Source: a virus. From it: 64,000 nucleotides of DNA. The stretch covers positions 32,001-96,000 of the IMG/VR virus record IMGVR_UViG_3300013006_000023, one strand, 5' to 3'. Within the stretch, counting starts at the first letter, position 1. Every line of letters starts with the position of its first letter. The translations under genes were made by a program, and so were the position numbers. This document shows positions 10,954-20,358 of the stretch, one piece after another. The notes under the pieces are model-generated. The model had not been told where the DNA came from, did not search any database, and worked only from the letters and a program-made list of their open reading frames with translations.

Positions 10954-12069
10954 ATGAATAAAGATCTCAAACAAGTATTTGCTTCTCTAGATAAGCTCAA
11001 CAGTGAAGCTTCCATGTTAAATGAAAATGCACTTAGTAAAGTGGATGAATGGTTTGATACAGGTTGCTATGCTCTCAACGCCATTCTAGGTGGCAGCTGC
11101 CGTAGTGGTGGTGTACCTAAAGGTAGAATCATAGGATTCTCAGGACCTAGCCAAACTGGCAAAACATTCATTGTTAACAAGATATTGGCCAGTGCACAAA
11201 AGAAAGGGTTAACCCCTGTTATTTTTGATACTGAAATAGCCATCGATGAAAACAGTACCAAAGGCGTCGGACTGGATGCTGAAAATACAAAATATGTTCC
11301 TGTGGATACTATTGATCAATGCAGAAATCAAATTGCTGCATTCCTGGATAGCGTCATTGAAAACAATGCAAAAGGTAAGTTTATTATCAGCATTGATAGC
11401 TTGGGTAACCTTGCTTCTCAGAAAGAACTGGATGATATTGTCAAAGACAAATCGGCTACAGATATGGGTCTTCGTGCCAAATCTCTCAAGAGTTTGTTTC
11501 GCACCCTCACATTCAAAGCTGCAAAAGCTGGTGTGACCATTTTGTTTACAAACCATACGTATGAAGATCCAGGCTCCATGTACCCGACACTGGTCAAGAG
11601 TCAAGCAGGCGGCTCTGGCCCTGTTTATATGTCCAGTATTTTGGTGCAATTAGCCAAGCGCAATGAAAAAGAAGGTGAAGGAGATTCAATGGATGCAGAC
11701 GATAAAAAGATTGCTGAAGCTAACAAATACTCAGGAACAACTCTTCGAGCTCTAACTGTAAAAAATCGATTCATTCCTCCATTCCTTGAAGCAGAGATGT
11801 ATCTTTCCTTCAAGACAGGTTTAAACAAATACAGTGGTCTACTTGCCATGGCAGCTGCACGTGGCATTGTTGAGCAAGCTGGCGCCACATATTCTGTGGG
11901 CATCACATCAGGCAAGTACAAGAAGGGTGATAAGCTTGGTTATGCCAAGACTTTTGCCAAAGATCCTTTATTTTACGAAGAATTTATTATACCTGAATTA
12001 GACAAACGTCTTGTATTAGATTACCAGTATAACTCTAATGAAGCGCAAGCAGAAGAGCCCATCCAGTAA
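10954..12069 (+). CDS. uvsX: UvsX RecA-like recombinase
   Basis: DTGCYALN, GPSQTGKT, FDTE, IDSLGNL, TNHTY, KNRFIPPF. Confidence 0.95.
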   Translation: MNKDLKQVFASLDKLNSEASMLNENALSKVDEWFDTGCYALNAILGGSCRSGGVPKGRIIGFSGPSQTGKTFIVNKILASAQKKGLTPVIFDTEIAIDENSTKGVGLDAENTKYVPVDTIDQCRNQIAAFLDSVIENNAKGKFIISIDSLGNLASQKELDDIVKDKSATDMGLRAKSLKSLFRTLTFKAAKAGVTILFTNHTYEDPGSMYPTLVKSQAGGSGPVYMSSILVQLAKRNEKEGEGDSMDADDKKIAEANKYSGTTLRALTVKNRFIPPFLEAEMYLSFKTGLNKYSGLLAMAAARGIVEQAGATYSVGITSGKYKKGDKLGYAKTFAKDPLFYEEFIIPELDKRLVLDYQYNSNEAQAEEPIQ

Positions 12070-12784
12070 AGTCGTAGTGCCCGTCAGTGGTGGCATGGAT
12101 AGCAGTGTTCTGTTGCATTTTGCTGCTAGCAAGTATGACAAAGTAATTGCAGTTAATTATGACTACGGTCAAAAACACCGTGATAAGGAACTCAATTGTG
12201 CATCATTTCAAATTGAATCGGTTGACACACCGATTGATAGTCTACATTTAAAATTACCGTTTTTTAAAGATATATGTCAAGTTTCTTCACTCCTTAATAA
12301 TAAAGTTGCTGTTGCCAAGGCTAAAGATGTAATGGGTGATCCACAGACTGTAAACTATGTTCCATACAGAAACTTAATGTTACTTAGCATTTCATTGGCC
12401 ATTGCAGAAAATTATCAGGCCAGCACTGTTTTTCATGGTGCGGCTCAAGCCGATAGTGTAGCGGGGTTTTGGGATGGCAGTGAAGAATTTTTGGAGCAAA
12501 TTAATAATGTATCGGCTTTGAATCGTAGAAATAAAATTACAGTTGCAGCACCATTGATTGACAAATCAAAGCAAGAAATCATAAAGCTCGGTATGAAGCT
12601 TGGTGTCGATTTTAGTCAGACTTGGACCTGTTACGAGGGTGAAGAGCAAGCCTGTGGTGAATGTACTGCATGCTCATTGCGCATCAAGGGCTTCATGGAT
12701 GCTGGGTACATAGACCCTGTTTCATATAAAATCTCATTACCCTGGAACAAATACAACTGCAAACCTATCAGTCGCTGTAACTAA
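12038..12784 (+). CDS. queC: QueC-family PP-loop ATP pyrophosphatase (7-cyano-7-deazaguanine synthase-like, divergent)
   Basis: SGGMDS, YGQKH, YVPYRN, TWTCY...CGECTACSLR zinc site; canonical GYPDC replaced by GFWDG. Confidence 0.88.
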   Translation: MKRKQKSPSSKVVVPVSGGMDSSVLLHFAASKYDKVIAVNYDYGQKHRDKELNCASFQIESVDTPIDSLHLKLPFFKDICQVSSLLNNKVAVAKAKDVMGDPQTVNYVPYRNLMLLSISLAIAENYQASTVFHGAAQADSVAGFWDGSEEFLEQINNVSALNRRNKITVAAPLIDKSKQEIIKLGMKLGVDFSQTWTCYEGEEQACGECTACSLRIKGFMDAGYIDPVSYKISLPWNKYNCKPISRCN

Positions 12785-13676
12785 AATTACCCCTATCAAC
12801 TGGCGCCTGTCTTAATCCAAACTCTTGCTTGGCTGCTGTATATACATCATCGCCCTCTGGATATTCATCTACTGTTGGAGCTTCACCTGTACCCTCCCCT
12901 TCGCTTTGTTTGGTTTCACTTGCCGGCATGTAGCTATTCTTATATTTCAATGAATCAATGAAGTCTCTTATAAATTCTTTATCTTTGGACTTGGTTACAT
13001 CATAAGCACGTGTTGTAGCTTCAATAACCTCATTCTCAAGTTCAGGTGATTCATAAATATCTCCTTTGTCAATCTTGATTTCATCAGGCAGTTCAACAAA
13101 AATTGGCATAAATTCTCTAATAAACTTTGTTGCCATATTCTTAACATAAGTGTTGGATGTTGCAACTGCATCCAAAGGCGAACCTGCTGGATGTTCTGTG
13201 CCAGTAATCGGCTTATTAATCATTCCTGCATCAACAGCTTGTTTTACTTTTACCATTGTTGTGTTAACACCGCCTTCCACATCAACCCTTACAACATTTA
13301 ACAAATTATCGATCACCCGCGCTGTATATTTTGCATCTGTGCCACCCAACTTTAACTCTGTTTTGATTAAATTTTCTAAATCTGCGCGAAACTTCATCTT
13401 GCTACCAGGATAGAAAAGCTGATACTCTTTACCATCAATAATGTTTGAACCGGGCTTAAAGAGCTTTGATTTGATGGCAGTCAACAAGCTATTGGCAATG
13501 TCGGTCTTTGTCTTGCCTTCTCTGGCTGCAGCTTTGCCGACACCATAACCACCACCTGGTGTTTTCTCAATGTCACCGGTGTATCCCATATCACCCATGC
13601 CATAGATCGGAGCTTCAGAAAGCACTTTCTTTCTTTTCAAATATGCTTCAAATATAAGACTGCAATCACTATTCAT
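12768..13676 (-). CDS. Hypothetical late protein, probable internal head protein
   Basis: 302 aa; TAAATA 7 nt upstream; N-terminus LIFEAY...VLSEA; overlaps the queC 3' end. Confidence 0.75.
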   Translation of the reverse strand: MNSDCSLIFEAYLKRKKVLSEAPIYGMGDMGYTGDIEKTPGGGYGVGKAAAREGKTKTDIANSLLTAIKSKLFKPGSNIIDGKEYQLFYPGSKMKFRADLENLIKTELKLGGTDAKYTARVIDNLLNVVRVDVEGGVNTTMVKVKQAVDAGMINKPITGTEHPAGSPLDAVATSNTYVKNMATKFIREFMPIFVELPDEIKIDKGDIYESPELENEVIEATTRAYDVTKSKDKEFIRDFIDSLKYKNSYMPASETKQSEGEGTGEAPTVDEYPEGDDVYTAAKQEFGLRQAPVDRGNFSYSD

Positions 13677-13677
13677 C

Positions 13678-13705
13678 TTGAATTATTTAATCTTATACAT
13701 ATAAT
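13678..13705 (+). promoter_or_regulatory. Sigma70-like promoter for the amidotransferase; its spacer contains a minus-strand late TAAATA (13684-13689)
   Basis: TTGAAT-N16-TATAAT. Confidence 0.6.
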
Positions 13706-13707
13706 AA

Positions 13708-13716
13708 TAAGGAGGT
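13708..13716 (+). promoter_or_regulatory. Strong Shine-Dalgarno TAAGGAGGT
   Basis: 9-nt perfect anti-SD match, 9 nt before ATT 13726. Confidence 0.75.
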
Positions 13717-13725
13717 ATAAAATAT

Positions 13726-14406
13726 ATTTGTGGAATATTTGGAGCCAAAGAGTTTACAGAATACGTTAAACTCTATAATTTGAACAAGAACAGGGGCACC
13801 TTTTCTTATGGTGGGCTATTGATTGATAACAAGATGCATGCCATTATTAAGAGCGCTGGAAAAATGCAGCTTAGTAAGAAGCTTGATATTGAATATGGAA
13901 AGACAAGAAAACCCATAAATACTTTCAAATATTACCTTGGCCACACACAAGCACCAACATCCTCAGAGAGAAACTACACACCTAGGACGTCACATCCTTT
14001 CTCTTTCAAAGATTGGCATGTAGCTCACAACGGTGTGCTCACCAATTACAAGCAGCTTCGTGAACTACTACCCAAGAAATCCTATAATGCAGTTGATACA
14101 TCCGTTATACCGCCTCTTCTTGACCAAGCATACAAACAAACAAAAGACGAGATTACTGCTATCCGTCATGTGCTAGGCTCACTACAAGGCACATTTGGCC
14201 TATGGATTTATAATCATAAGACACACCACATATACATAGCGCGATCTGGTAGCACCATATATGCAGATTTCCTTACAAATAGTTTTTCTTCAATAAAACA
14301 AGATAATTTTCATGAACTTGAAGAGGGATTAATTTATCTCATAACACCAGAAGGTATAACATCTGTGGGTAAATTCATACCAAATTCACCTTTCTTCACT
14401 AAATGA
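13726..14406 (+). CDS. Class II (Ntn) glutamine amidotransferase with ATT start (ORF track truncates it at 13780)
   Basis: ATT TGT GGA ATA TTT GGA = (M)CGIFG; then NKNRG, LGHTQAPT, SHPF, AHNGVLTN, LQGTFG, YIARS. Confidence 0.85.
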   Translation: MCGIFGAKEFTEYVKLYNLNKNRGTFSYGGLLIDNKMHAIIKSAGKMQLSKKLDIEYGKTRKPINTFKYYLGHTQAPTSSERNYTPRTSHPFSFKDWHVAHNGVLTNYKQLRELLPKKSYNAVDTSVIPPLLDQAYKQTKDEITAIRHVLGSLQGTFGLWIYNHKTHHIYIARSGSTIYADFLTNSFSSIKQDNFHELEEGLIYLITPEGITSVGKFIPNSPFFTK

Positions 14407-15077
14407 AAACTGCTTTTTATTTCTGTACCCGAAATACGCATGCTAAATCAACACTGGCATTCAAATCTTTATTGCAAATAAATCAAAAATTAAATTTTGA
14501 TATATTTTACAAATCAAACAACAAGGATGGCTTGTCAGTTAATTATAATTCCTTTCTTAAAGAAAAATCTGCTCAATATGATAACATTGTCTTCATGCAT
14601 GATGATGTGTATGTAGACGATTTCAATATAATAGATAAACTTAAAAAAGCGCACGACAGTTTTGACATTGTTGGATTAGCAGGTGGGATAAACATGAAAA
14701 TACAGAATCCTGCACTGTGGCATCTCATGTGCGGCGGCTTTCAAAGCAACAACCTACGAGGTGCAGTTGCTCATTTTGTTTCTGAAAACATTATTAATAT
14801 GACAAGCTTTGGCATAACACCATCACGAGTTGCTGTATTGGACGGCTTGTTCTTAAGCGTCAATTGCAAGGCAATAAATACCGCAGAATTTACTTTTAAT
14901 GAAAATTACACCTTTCATCATTATGACATTTCAAGCTGTATAGATGCCAATCAAAAGAAATTAAAATTGGGTGTGTATCCCATATGGGTTATTCACAAAT
15001 CACCGGGGCTTTTAGACCCTAATAGTGCTCTGTATCTAGACAGCGAGCGCAAATTTCTCCAAGAATACCTTGATTGA
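14403..15077 (+). CDS. GT2-like (GT-A) glycosyltransferase
   Basis: VFMHDDVYV, IVGLAG, VAVLDGLFL, FHHYDISSC, VIHKSPG; ATGA-coupled to the amidotransferase. Confidence 0.8.
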   Translation: MKTAFYFCTRNTHAKSTLAFKSLLQINQKLNFDIFYKSNNKDGLSVNYNSFLKEKSAQYDNIVFMHDDVYVDDFNIIDKLKKAHDSFDIVGLAGGINMKIQNPALWHLMCGGFQSNNLRGAVAHFVSENIINMTSFGITPSRVAVLDGLFLSVNCKAINTAEFTFNENYTFHHYDISSCIDANQKKLKLGVYPIWVIHKSPGLLDPNSALYLDSERKFLQEYLD

Positions 15078-15101
15078 AAATTCGTTTATTGATATTATAA
15101 T
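15074..15101 (+). promoter_or_regulatory. Sigma70-like early promoter for helicase
   Basis: TTGAAA-N16-TATAAT, 6 nt before ATG 15108. Confidence 0.65.
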
Positions 15102-15107
15102 ACAGTT

Positions 15108-16430
15108 ATGGCTCAGTTAGATTTAGACTTTTTTGAGACTATCATAGCATACAAATGTCTTACAGATGAAATATATCTGGCTTCTGTTATTGACCATCTA
15201 AATCCTATCTTCTTTAAGAACAAAGACACCAAAGCTATTTTTGAGCTAATAAAAGGGTTTTATACCAAAAATAGTGCTTGCCCCACTATAACTGAAATAA
15301 AGGCCTACCTGACAACTGACGAGTTAAAGACGTCTTTAAAAAATGTGGTATCACTATTCACCGGCATAGACAAAAATTTTAATAACGATGAGCTAACTAC
15401 AAATACAGAGAAATTTTTGAAAGAAAAAGCCGTCTACCATACAATGATGAGTGTAGTGGATGACATATCTAAAAACGATGTTGATACATCAAAAATATTA
15501 GAAAAATTCGATAAAGCTTGTAATATTACACTCACTACTCAAATAGGTTTAGATTTATTCACCGACATTGATATGGTAATAAATGACCTCAACTCCACAG
15601 AGAAATACATTCCCTCCAAATGGAAATGGCTTGATGATAAGATCGGTGGCGGGTTTCTAGAGAATGGCAGGTCGCTCTATCTTTTTGCTGGCGAGACCAA
15701 CATCGGCAAGTCTATATTCTTAGGCAATGTAGCAGTCAACATTGCACAACAGGGCAAAACAGTTCTTCTTGTGTCTCTTGAAATGCCTGAACTCATATAT
15801 GCAAAAAGATTATGCAGCAGTGTTTCAAAAATACCGCTAGGTCAGCTCAAGGCTGAATGTGTAACACTCAAGAATCAAATTAGTGAATATTGTCTCGAAA
15901 ACCCGCAATCAAAAATTCTTATCAAAGAGTTTCCGCCAGCAACCATAACTGCACATCAACTCAAATCGTTTATTCAAAAAATAATTCAAAAAGGTATTAA
16001 CATTGATGCCATAGTACTAGATTATGTCAATCTTCTTAAACCAGCTTTTGGTGATTCAAGCTATGAGCGTATTAAGAACTGTACAGAACATCTTCGTGCT
16101 CTGTCATATCATTTTAATTGTCCAGTCATCTCTGCAACACAACTCAATAGAGAAGGGTATGAAATTACTGATCCTGGTCTCAAGACAATATCTGAAAGTA
16201 TAGGCTTAGCCATGACAGGTGATGTTATTCTGAGTATTTGGCAAGAAGATACAGATAAAGAATTAGGCGTTATCAAAATGGGCTTCATGAAAAACCGGTT
16301 CGGTCCAAACTTCGGACATTGTTCTATGAGAATTGATTACTCGACCTTAACAATTACAGAAGATGAGCATGCTAATGATACTGAGGGCAGTTCTAGTACA
16401 ATTTCTACTCTTTCCAAGCTATCGTTATAA
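15108..16430 (+). CDS. gp41: gp41 DnaB-like replicative helicase
   Basis: AGETNIGKS, SLEM, IKEFP, LDYVNLL, SATQLNR, ISESIG, MKNRFG. Confidence 0.95.
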   Translation: MAQLDLDFFETIIAYKCLTDEIYLASVIDHLNPIFFKNKDTKAIFELIKGFYTKNSACPTITEIKAYLTTDELKTSLKNVVSLFTGIDKNFNNDELTTNTEKFLKEKAVYHTMMSVVDDISKNDVDTSKILEKFDKACNITLTTQIGLDLFTDIDMVINDLNSTEKYIPSKWKWLDDKIGGGFLENGRSLYLFAGETNIGKSIFLGNVAVNIAQQGKTVLLVSLEMPELIYAKRLCSSVSKIPLGQLKAECVTLKNQISEYCLENPQSKILIKEFPPATITAHQLKSFIQKIIQKGINIDAIVLDYVNLLKPAFGDSSYERIKNCTEHLRALSYHFNCPVISATQLNREGYEITDPGLKTISESIGLAMTGDVILSIWQEDTDKELGVIKMGFMKNRFGPNFGHCSMRIDYSTLTITEDEHANDTEGSSSTISTLSKLSL

Positions 16431-16471: not shown

Positions 16472-16759
16472 GTGAATGGACTTAACCCCACTGAAAATTT
16501 GAGCTCGTATGAGTACACACATCTCTTTCTTTCCTTTTGTAGTTTTGTTACATTATTACATACTAAGAAATTAAACATGGCTAACGTCTTTATTATGCTA
16601 TTGCAACGCGAGGATTTGAGAGATCTATTTAAAAAGTATTGCGACCTACAGAACAATTTTTCTGCAGTCACTTTTTTTCTTCAATTTGAGCCTGGACTTT
16701 ATAAAAGTAAGTATATAATGAAGTATCTAAACAGTCATACCAACAATCTACCATTATGA
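16472..16759 (+). CDS. Hypothetical protein
   Basis: 95-aa GTG-start ORF, ATGA-coupled to bS21. Confidence 0.6.
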   Translation: MNGLNPTENLSSYEYTHLFLSFCSFVTLLHTKKLNMANVFIMLLQREDLRDLFKKYCDLQNNFSAVTFFLQFEPGLYKSKYIMKYLNSHTNNLPL

Positions 16760-16965
16760 ACCAACCAAATATAAATGCAGCAGTTATCTTAGATCCAAAA
16801 AAATGCACAGAGAAAATGTATTTTGATAAAATGTACACCAAGTTCAGCAGGCAAGTAATTACAAGCGGTGTTCTGGATGACCTTAGGTTAAGAAGACGGT
16901 TCTTAACACCATCCCAAAGAAAAAAACTCAAAGTTCAGCTTGCCAACAAGAGAAGATTTGCTTGA
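16756..16965 (+). CDS. rpsU: Phage-encoded 30S ribosomal protein bS21 homologue
   Basis: 69 aa, basic; FDKMYTKFSRQVITSGVLDDLRLRRRFLTPSQRKKLK matches the bS21 pattern F.R.V..SG(I/V)L.E/D.R.R..F.KPS..R. Confidence 0.8.
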   Translation: MNQPNINAAVILDPKKCTEKMYFDKMYTKFSRQVITSGVLDDLRLRRRFLTPSQRKKLKVQLANKRRFA

Positions 16966-20051: not shown

Positions 20052-20358
20052 TAGCAATCTAAACAATTTTAACCCCAATGAGAACAAGGAGGTTAAAGAG
20101 CTCACTCATAAAGCATTAATTAACTTTTTAAAAGAAGAGATAACTAATAAGCATGCATTAAAGAAGGATCTAGATGCTCTCAATTCTACAATATCAGAAT
20201 ATTTAAATTGTTTTATTCTATTGGGATACAATTGTGATGGTGATCCTGTGCAAACTATTTTTGCACACAATCAGCAGGAAGCTGATTCTCTTGGCACACT
20301 GGTTAATAAGTTTATGTTCAGTACACGCGAAAAAGATGATGATCGTGGAGATTTGTAA
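20029..20358 (+). CDS. Hypothetical late protein (start 20029 or 20026)
   Basis: TAAATA at 20017-20022, 6 nt before ATG 20029. Confidence 0.7.
   Translation: MSKSNPPDSNLNNFNPNENKEVKELTHKALINFLKEEITNKHALKKDLDALNSTISEYLNCFILLGYNCDGDPVQTIFAHNQQEADSLGTLVNKFMFSTREKDDDRGDL

Follow-up and report, generated by a model that had tools for sequence, protein, structure and literature searches.

Class-II (Ntn) glutamine amidotransferases act through an N-terminal cysteine, which is exposed by deformylase and methionine aminopeptidase. Because this N-terminal cysteine is the nucleophile, the start codon of such a gene must directly precede the cysteine codon. AUU initiates translation of pcnB, as well as infC, in E. 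coli, and initiation factor IF3, which discriminates against AUU, also disfavours initiation on leaderless messages. IF3 discriminates against the non-canonical starts AUU, AUC and AUA, and the output of AUU was approximately 5% of that of AUG for a phage hydrolase (PMC5499595). In general, weak start codons tend toward compensation by stronger Shine-Dalgarno sequences (SDs) (Belinky, Rogozin and Koonin 2017, PMC5622118). Among phages, the GlmS-like amidotransferase phi32_83 of phiEco32 has a RefSeq coding sequence that begins with ATT TGT GGC, placing Cys1 directly after ATT, with an AGGTGGA-type SD ahead. We found no description in the literature of ATT/AUU starts in phage amidotransferases or of their alternation with leaderless ATG starts.

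The window analysed here is a stretch of 64,000 nt from an IMG/VR virus record of 107,651 nt, which is estimated to be ~51% complete. Its source is an uncultured freshwater T4-like phage. The local gene order comprises a UvsX-like recombinase, QueC, a divergent gene of 302 aa, the amidotransferase, a glycosyltransferase-like gene, a gp41/DnaB-type helicase (~28% identical to the helicases of cultured T4-like phages), two small genes including one for the ribosomal protein bS21, and gp32. The features considered below are the following:

12038-12784, plus strand: QueC-family gene (Pfam QueC, 186 bits)
12768-13676, minus strand: divergent gene of 302 aa without a family match, found beside the amidotransferase in most relatives
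13678-13683, plus strand: -35-like hexamer TTGAAT of the putative amidotransferase promoter, overlapping the minus-strand TAAATA box
13684-13689, minus strand: TAAATA box (T4-late-promoter-like), 7 nt ahead of the ATG of the divergent 302-aa gene
13700-13705, plus strand: -10 hexamer TATAAT; with TTGAAT and a 16-nt spacer, 10/12 matches
13708-13716, plus strand: SD TAAGGAGGT, complementary over all 9 nt to the canonical 16S 3' end; its first three bases are a TAA stop
13726-13728, plus strand: predicted ATT (AUU) initiation codon
13726-14406, plus strand: class-II (Ntn, Cys1) glutamine-amidotransferase-like gene, mature protein of 225 aa, encoded from Cys 13729 to 14403, with the N-terminus CGIFG
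13780-13782, plus strand: TTG chosen by mechanical ORF calling and by database calls, giving a 208-aa product without Cys1
14403-15077, plus strand: glycosyltransferase-like gene (Glyco_tranf_2_5, 46.7 bits)
16756-16965, plus strand: phage bS21 gene (PF01165, 38.2 bits, above the cut-off), 3 kb downstream of the amidotransferase

The assignment of the protein is based on several lines of evidence. Pfam profiles GATase_6 (36.2 bits, cut-off 27) and GATase_7 (33.3 bits, cut-off 25) both matched, and a profile built from the protein and its relatives matched the glutaminase domain of E. coli GlmS (1xff) with an E-value of 1.3e-9. The motif HNGV was aligned with HNGI of GlmS, and VDxSVI with TDTEVI. 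The residues H100, N101, G102 and D123, which include the Asn-Gly of the oxyanion hole and the Asp that binds the amino group of glutamine, are invariant. A further block, GHTQAPT, contains the invariant Q74 and lies outside the HMMER alignment; it may correspond to the region of Arg73, the residue of E. coli GlmS that binds the carboxylate of glutamine. Cys1 itself is invariant across 87 loci among the matches listed, and CGIFG or CAIFG is always in frame. The QueC and amidotransferase genes, the pair expected of a 7-deazaguanine DNA-modification module of the Gat-QueC type, are both present, parted by the divergent gene, and this synteny is conserved. No PF01702 match to a transglycosylase of the DpdA/TGT type, which would insert the base into DNA, was detected in the 107-kb record, which is ~51% complete. 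The adjacency of the amidotransferase and the glycosyltransferase (GAT-GT2) is kept in all loci among the matches listed. The ATG of the glycosyltransferase gene overlaps the TGA of the amidotransferase gene (ATGA at 14403). Given this overlap and the lack of an SD of its own, translation of the glycosyltransferase is probably coupled to that of the amidotransferase.

The region preceding Cys1 leaves little choice of start codon. The in-frame TAA at 13708-13710 forms the first part of TAAGGAGGT, and a 9-nt A/U spacer then leads to ATT, followed from 13729 by TGT GGA ATA TTT GGA, which encodes C-G-I-F-G. The codons read in frame between the TAA stop and the cysteine are GGA GGT ATA AAA TAT ATT. 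As the initial annotation had stated, none of these is ATG, GTG or TTG, and ATT is therefore the sole possible start ahead of Cys1. Its placement behind the one well-placed strong SD was confirmed base for base, including the spacer. Two copies of the 8-mer AAGGAGGT lie in the window (at 13709, and at 20086 inside a gene) against 1.35 expected by chance. This copy number alone is not significant, and the signal comes from the placement and conservation of the motif. The divergent minus-strand gene starts at 13676, which leaves 49 nt of intergenic DNA, and the promoter block cTTGAAtTATTTAtt is conserved in nearly all of the 87 loci among the matches listed. The predicted RNA fold of 13711-13790 is unremarkable (z -1.4). 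Two out-of-frame codons, UUG at 13728 and GUG at 13730, lie 2 and 4 nt downstream of AUU, and they could capture many initiations and further lower the yield.

It had also been anticipated that gene callers would truncate this gene, and this is indeed the case. In the ORF list this frame opens at TTG 13780 and loses Cys1, and the database proteins of 190-214 aa that lack Cys1 include P0001 (208 aa, starting MNKNRG), P0002 (195 aa), P0003 (190 aa) and P0005 (212 aa). Our protein search returned 417 relatives, many of which are 179-216 aa long and begin well inside the domain, and others are 225-232 aa long with the N-terminus MCGIFG. One database call from an upstream TTG reads ...QEVITI-CGIFG, i.e., the translated SD followed by Ile and Cys. 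Judging from these sequences, the gene does start at ATT, this start is conserved, and databases annotate it wrongly. Much of this protein family, which is abundant in freshwater phages, is represented by truncated automatic calls that lack the catalytic cysteine. Functional and structural predictions that start from such calls would be wrong because the truncated proteins miss this residue.

An ATT in place of a canonical start could also be the product of a sequencing error or of a decaying gene, with the TTG 13780 product (the start that gene callers pick) or a propeptide initiated at ATA 13717 as the actual translation. A cleaved propeptide is known from B. subtilis PurF. Contigs from three other studies (X3, X4, X6; lake) span 13300-14500 with 4, 8 and 12 differences from the window, but none of these differences falls within 13636-13745. 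The nearest relative that we fetched, L083 (87% protein identity), presents ATAGGAGGT, nine bases and then ATT TGT GGC. ATT and its SD are thus identical in three independent assemblies and are also present in L083, which argues against an assembly error or a recent mutation, two outcomes under which the initial annotation would have fallen. The N-terminus CGIFG/CAIFG is conserved in frame in the 87 loci (among the matches listed), ATA 13717 directly abuts the SD with zero spacing, and some relatives carry stops 2-3 codons ahead of ATT. An artefact or a dead gene is contradicted by the independent assemblies and by the conserved in-frame N-terminus, and we consider this reading extremely improbable. 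One RNA run (X19) yielded a single contig of 287 nt covering 13339-13625, none of which lies over the amidotransferase.

We then compared start layouts across the family. Two scans of IMG/VR (the best 80 matches per scan of roughly 300 loci) and one metagenome scan gave 87 distinct loci, including the window. Among these matches, ATT with a GGAGG-type SD within 20 nt was found at 50 loci, ATG with no SD within 20 nt at 35 loci, ATG with an SD within 20 nt at 2 loci, and ATT with no SD within 20 nt at none. No GTG, TTG, ATA or ATC start was found among the SD-bearing alleles (50 ATT and 2 ATG among the matches listed). An ATA start would create an out-of-frame ATG with the TG that follows. The 50 ATT loci present 33 different 20-nt leaders, in all of which ATT is invariant. 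Several of them have an in-frame stop 2-3 codons upstream with only TAT, CAT or ACT in between; there is therefore no shared upstream start, and ATT is the only common candidate. The distance from the end of TATAAT to the start codon is 18-20 nt in ATT loci, with the SD in between, and 6-9 nt in ATG loci. The ATT layout thus resembles an ATG layout lengthened, downstream of the -10 box and ahead of the start codon, by ~12 nt that carry the SD. The ATG loci without an SD look leaderless. These leaderless relatives go beyond the initial annotation, as do the message start predicted at the SD and the association of the leader with an endonuclease-like gene in one group, both of which are described below.

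The leaderless layout is not peculiar to these relatives. We inspected the 40 nt upstream of 60 likely genes of the window and found that almost none of them has an SD. Early-looking genes present TTGAnn-N16-18-TATAAT ending 5-9 nt ahead of the start codon, and late-looking genes present TAAATA 5-7 nt ahead of it; the layout TAAATA-N5-7-ATG seen at the 302-aa gene also heads many late genes of the window. These arrangements suggest that the design of the phage is largely leaderless. In the 107-kb record, no gene other than that of the amidotransferase clearly combines an SD with a non-canonical start at the head of a long ORF lacking a canonical alternative. A handful of operon-internal genes in the same record have an AGGAG-type SD ahead of ATG, and the ribosome of the host is therefore presumably SD-competent. 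From the sigma-70-type promoters we infer that the host is probably not a member of the Bacteroidota. No tRNA gene, including any special initiator tRNA, was found in the 107-kb record.

Taken together, the explanation that we regard as highly probable is true AUU initiation at 13726 on a 30S subunit held by the SD, in a family that uses two interchangeable layouts. The sigma-70-type promoter (TTGAAT-16-TATAAT) would place the first base of the message at about 13710-13713, at or inside the AGGAGG core. Across the clade of the window, the A of AGGAGG lies 5-6 nt past the -10 box. With transcription starting inside the SD core, the leader would be little more than the SD and the 9-nt A/U spacer. 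A transcription start at 13712-13713 would leave an SD in the RNA that is shorter than the 9 nt present in the DNA. Pairing between the SD and the anti-SD would anchor the 30S subunit, the initiator tRNA would read the near-cognate AUU, and removal of fMet would expose the catalytic N-terminal cysteine. Ribosomes ending at ATGA may then restart on the glycosyltransferase gene. Since the glycosyltransferase is probably translated by the same ribosomes, one weak entry point would set the output of both enzymes. Other members of the family would use either a leaderless AUG, as do most genes of these phages, or an SD with AUU. That ATT never occurs without an SD would be expected because a leaderless message cannot use AUU efficiently.

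The history of the two layouts was examined on a maximum-likelihood tree of the amidotransferase proteins. The start-codon state requires 5-7 changes on this tree. An independent-pairs test of the association of ATT with the SD gave 3-4 pairs in the same direction and 0 in the opposite direction (p 0.125), a test that cannot reach significance with so few pairs. The window belongs to a monophyletic clade of 34 loci, all with ATT and an SD among the matches listed, whose branches sum to 4.26 amino-acid substitutions per site. Within this clade the start codon changed 0 times, and the fourfold sites of the adjacent Gly codons changed at least 8 times each and the third base of the Cys codon 3 times. 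The sequence of the divergent 302-aa gene tracks that of the amidotransferase, with 57-90% identity within the clade and 28-41% outside, which suggests that the layout arose once and early in the clade and was then long retained. The retention of ATT and its 50:2 excess among SD-bearing alleles form the pattern that selection for a weak start would give. The deliberate throttle proposed in the initial annotation is thus plausible, being consistent with an ATT kept over the whole of this divergence. As for its purpose, we tentatively rank highest, at somewhat less than an even chance, a weak start that holds the translation of a free-standing glutaminase-type enzyme and of its coupled partner at a low, fixed rate.

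It is also conceivable that the start codon weakened without selection: once an SD had arisen, the strength of the start would no longer have mattered, and in an A+T-rich genome ATG could have decayed to ATT. The G+C content is 32-42% and G-ending codons are avoided near the start; indeed, among the matches listed, no GGG was found at the two Gly codons in the 50 ATT loci. Since G-ending codons are rare, the lack of reversions to ATG says less in favour of a throttle than it would otherwise seem to. The offsetting of weakened starts by stronger SDs is, moreover, a general pattern (PMC5622118). Neutral or compensated drift should nevertheless produce a mixture of start codons, but the SD-bearing alleles are nearly all ATT, and several separate groups that differ in their leaders have all retained it. 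We therefore judge drift to be quite unlikely.

The initial annotation had pointed to a phage bS21 gene 3 kb away, which we located at 16756-16965, and had suggested an initiation-factor sensor as a second possibility. AUU would then answer to the level of IF3, or to ribosomes carrying phage bS21, and would time the expression of the gene. In line with this idea, AUU is the IF3-sensed codon of infC, and leaderless initiation is disfavoured by IF3 as well. In addition, bS21 is found ~3 kb downstream in 5/5 large ATT-type contigs checked, and the protein touches the SD:anti-SD helix (PMC9723584). Our bS21 protein search matched three phage-like proteins, and an identical bS21 protein is encoded on a contig of 228,968 nt. 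Against a sensor, the leaderless-ATG contig L045 has a bS21 match at the same position (24 bits, below the Pfam cut-off) and the contig L059, with SD and ATG, has a strong match at another position. The association of bS21 is therefore not specific to ATT. We did not find bS21 in L066 and L038 (ATG-type) or in L054 (ATT-type), which are fragments of 36-60% estimated completeness. No IF3 gene was found in the 107-kb record, and the sequence gives nothing to tell sensing from simple weakness. A sensor thus appears improbable, to about the same degree as drift. In a related proposal, both layouts would be disfavoured by IF3, and a ribosome-remodelling phage would in either layout keep the expression of the gene dependent on initiation factors or on bS21. 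We rate this slightly lower still, but if true, it would make the family a natural system for studying how phages reprogram the selection of start sites.

Finally, some relatives carry an additional gene at this site. A minus-strand ORF of 244 aa lies between the 302-aa gene and the amidotransferase in six loci (L071, L072, L075, L077, L056 and L057). It presents similarity to GIY-YIG, SegE-type and NUMOD1 sequences, all under the Pfam cut-offs (GIY-YIG, 21.2 against a curated 22.6 bits). This suggests another history for the layout, in which a free-standing GIY-YIG gene inserts just upstream of the start of the amidotransferase gene, an SD+ATT leader is carried along or arises as a cleavage-resistant variant of a target that has no other room to change, since it encodes the catalytic N-terminus, and the layout outlasts the gene. 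L071 and L056 share 66-90% identity over the ORF and the leader, with a peak of 90% over the leader and the start, and identity drops to 43-48% over the first 250 nt of the amidotransferase gene. The same leader (AAACAGGAGAGGAGGGTAACGCT ahead of ATT) is found in three different clades of the amidotransferase. L054 has the leader together with ~100-150 nt that align to the 5' end of the ORF of L071, the ORF itself being absent. L071 also has an ORF-less sister, L076, with SD and ATT on the native promoter, and a leaderless-ATG sister, L068. Because the leader and the ORF are conserved beyond their flanks, part of the apparent convergence reflects the horizontal movement of a cassette, and these patterns argue for a real endonuclease-related origin in the ORF-bearing group. 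A propeptide starting from an in-frame ATG 13 codons upstream was considered and rejected, this ATG being found only in L071 and L072 and not conserved.

The clade of the window presents a different picture. None of its 34 loci, the window included, has the GIY-YIG-like ORF or a remnant of it; the intergenic gap measures ~52 nt in all of them, and the native promoter is preserved. A scan with the 244-aa protein matched only those six contigs among the matches listed, the co-divergence of the 302-aa gene points to one old origin rather than to local conversion, and the domain score stays under the curated threshold. Moreover, GTG or TTG would have been cheaper changes for escaping cleavage, yet ATT alone is seen. 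With neither ORF nor remnant in this clade, the endonuclease is a lead for the origin of the layout and not an explanation of the present state of the window. As an account of the window, we consider an endonuclease legacy unlikely, yet less so than drift or a sensor.

Under our preferred explanation of AUU initiation from an SD-held subunit, the family provides dozens of natural alleles that differ in their mode of initiation: leaderless AUG, SD with AUG, and SD with AUU. These alleles sit in an otherwise SD-avoiding genome and constitute a test set in which start-codon strength, SD strength and leader length can be weighed against each other. The link between the leader and the endonuclease-like gene, together with the case of phiEco32, also raises the idea that the start codon is the sole changeable place in the DNA encoding the catalytic N-terminus.

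The locus shares features with several described systems and is identical to none of them. Like infC and pcnB of E. coli, it has an AUU start that is kept among orthologues and served by an SD, and weak, IF3-discriminated initiation is expected. Unlike infC, it has no link to IF3 autoregulation and encodes a phage enzyme whose catalytic residue is N-terminal after removal of Met; unlike both genes, it alternates within the phage family between this AUU layout and a leaderless AUG. The ATG-type relatives, like most genes of the phage, resemble leaderless phage mRNAs such as that of lambda cI, with a -10 or late box 5-9 nt ahead of the start and no SD, whereas the amidotransferase of the window has a minimal SD leader and a non-AUG start. 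The pairing of a weaker start with a stronger SD follows the pattern of Belinky et al. 2017 (PMC5622118). That pattern concerns changes from AUG to GUG or UUG within SD-led genes, whereas here the new codon is AUU and its use goes together with SD-led in place of leaderless initiation. As with the free-standing GIY-YIG (Seg) genes of T4-type phages, the 244-aa ORF occupies one intergenic site in some relatives and is missing from it in others, and it is more conserved than its flanks. Unlike in Seg systems, the GIY-YIG-like ORF is missing from the window and its whole clade, and the domain scores are below threshold. The phi32_83 gene was not among the matches listed in a tblastn search of phage records, and it differs from the gene described here in encoding a two-domain enzyme of 676 aa, in belonging to an E. 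coli podophage and in having a hairpin in its leader. With phiEco32, a Cys1 amidotransferase started at ATT is on record in a second phage lineage, unrelated to the one described here.

We compared the window gene by gene across positions 10954-16430 with four related phage contigs (L018, L036, L037 and L040). Identity was 98-99% for the UvsX-like recombinase, 83-92% for QueC, 39-72% for the divergent 302-aa gene, 57-64% for the amidotransferase and 67-79% for the helicase. Judged from sequence, a sharp mosaic boundary is located near the junction of QueC and the 302-aa gene. This block of replication genes also houses QueC, the amidotransferase and a glycosyltransferase (12038-15077); a search of the 107-kb record, itself about half complete, gave no gene of the TGT/DpdA family.

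The features flanking or within the amidotransferase are as follows:
12768-13676, minus strand: divergent 302-aa gene (counterparts at 817-1710 in locus L071 and 1410-2306 in locus L054)
L071 1720-2454, minus strand: 244-aa GIY-YIG/NUMOD1-like ORF, separating the amidotransferase from the 302-aa gene
13939-13959: GHTQAPT block of the amidotransferase, with Q74 invariant in the family alignment

Both listed counterparts of the 302-aa gene gave weak, sub-threshold matches to a Type ISP restriction-modification coupler domain, and the window copy gave no family match. A 287-nt contig from the lake metatranscriptome X19 is identical to part of this gene (13339-13625); its source could be either RNA or DNA carry-over. 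The GIY-YIG/NUMOD1-like insertion of L071 also occurs in the related loci L056, L057, L072, L075 and L077 and is better conserved between phages than its flanks; only a remnant is left in L054.

In L071 and L072, a one-base difference creates an in-frame ATG, directly preceded by TGA, 39 nt (13 codons) upstream of the Cys1 codon of the amidotransferase. The sisters L054, L056 and L075 lack this ATG, which is therefore probably not used as a start.

Across the window (1-64000), nearly all listed gene starts lack a Shine-Dalgarno sequence. Early-type genes present TTGAnn-N16-18-TATAAT, with the box ending 5-9 nt upstream of the start codon, and late-type genes present TAAATA 5-7 nt upstream of it. 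Together, these patterns suggest a leaderless or near-leaderless design throughout the phage genome.

Finally, the GHTQAPT block is the putative counterpart of the glutamine-binding HTRWAT of E. coli GlmS. In this pairing the invariant Gln would replace an Arg, and the substrate of the amidotransferase may thus be other than glutamine.
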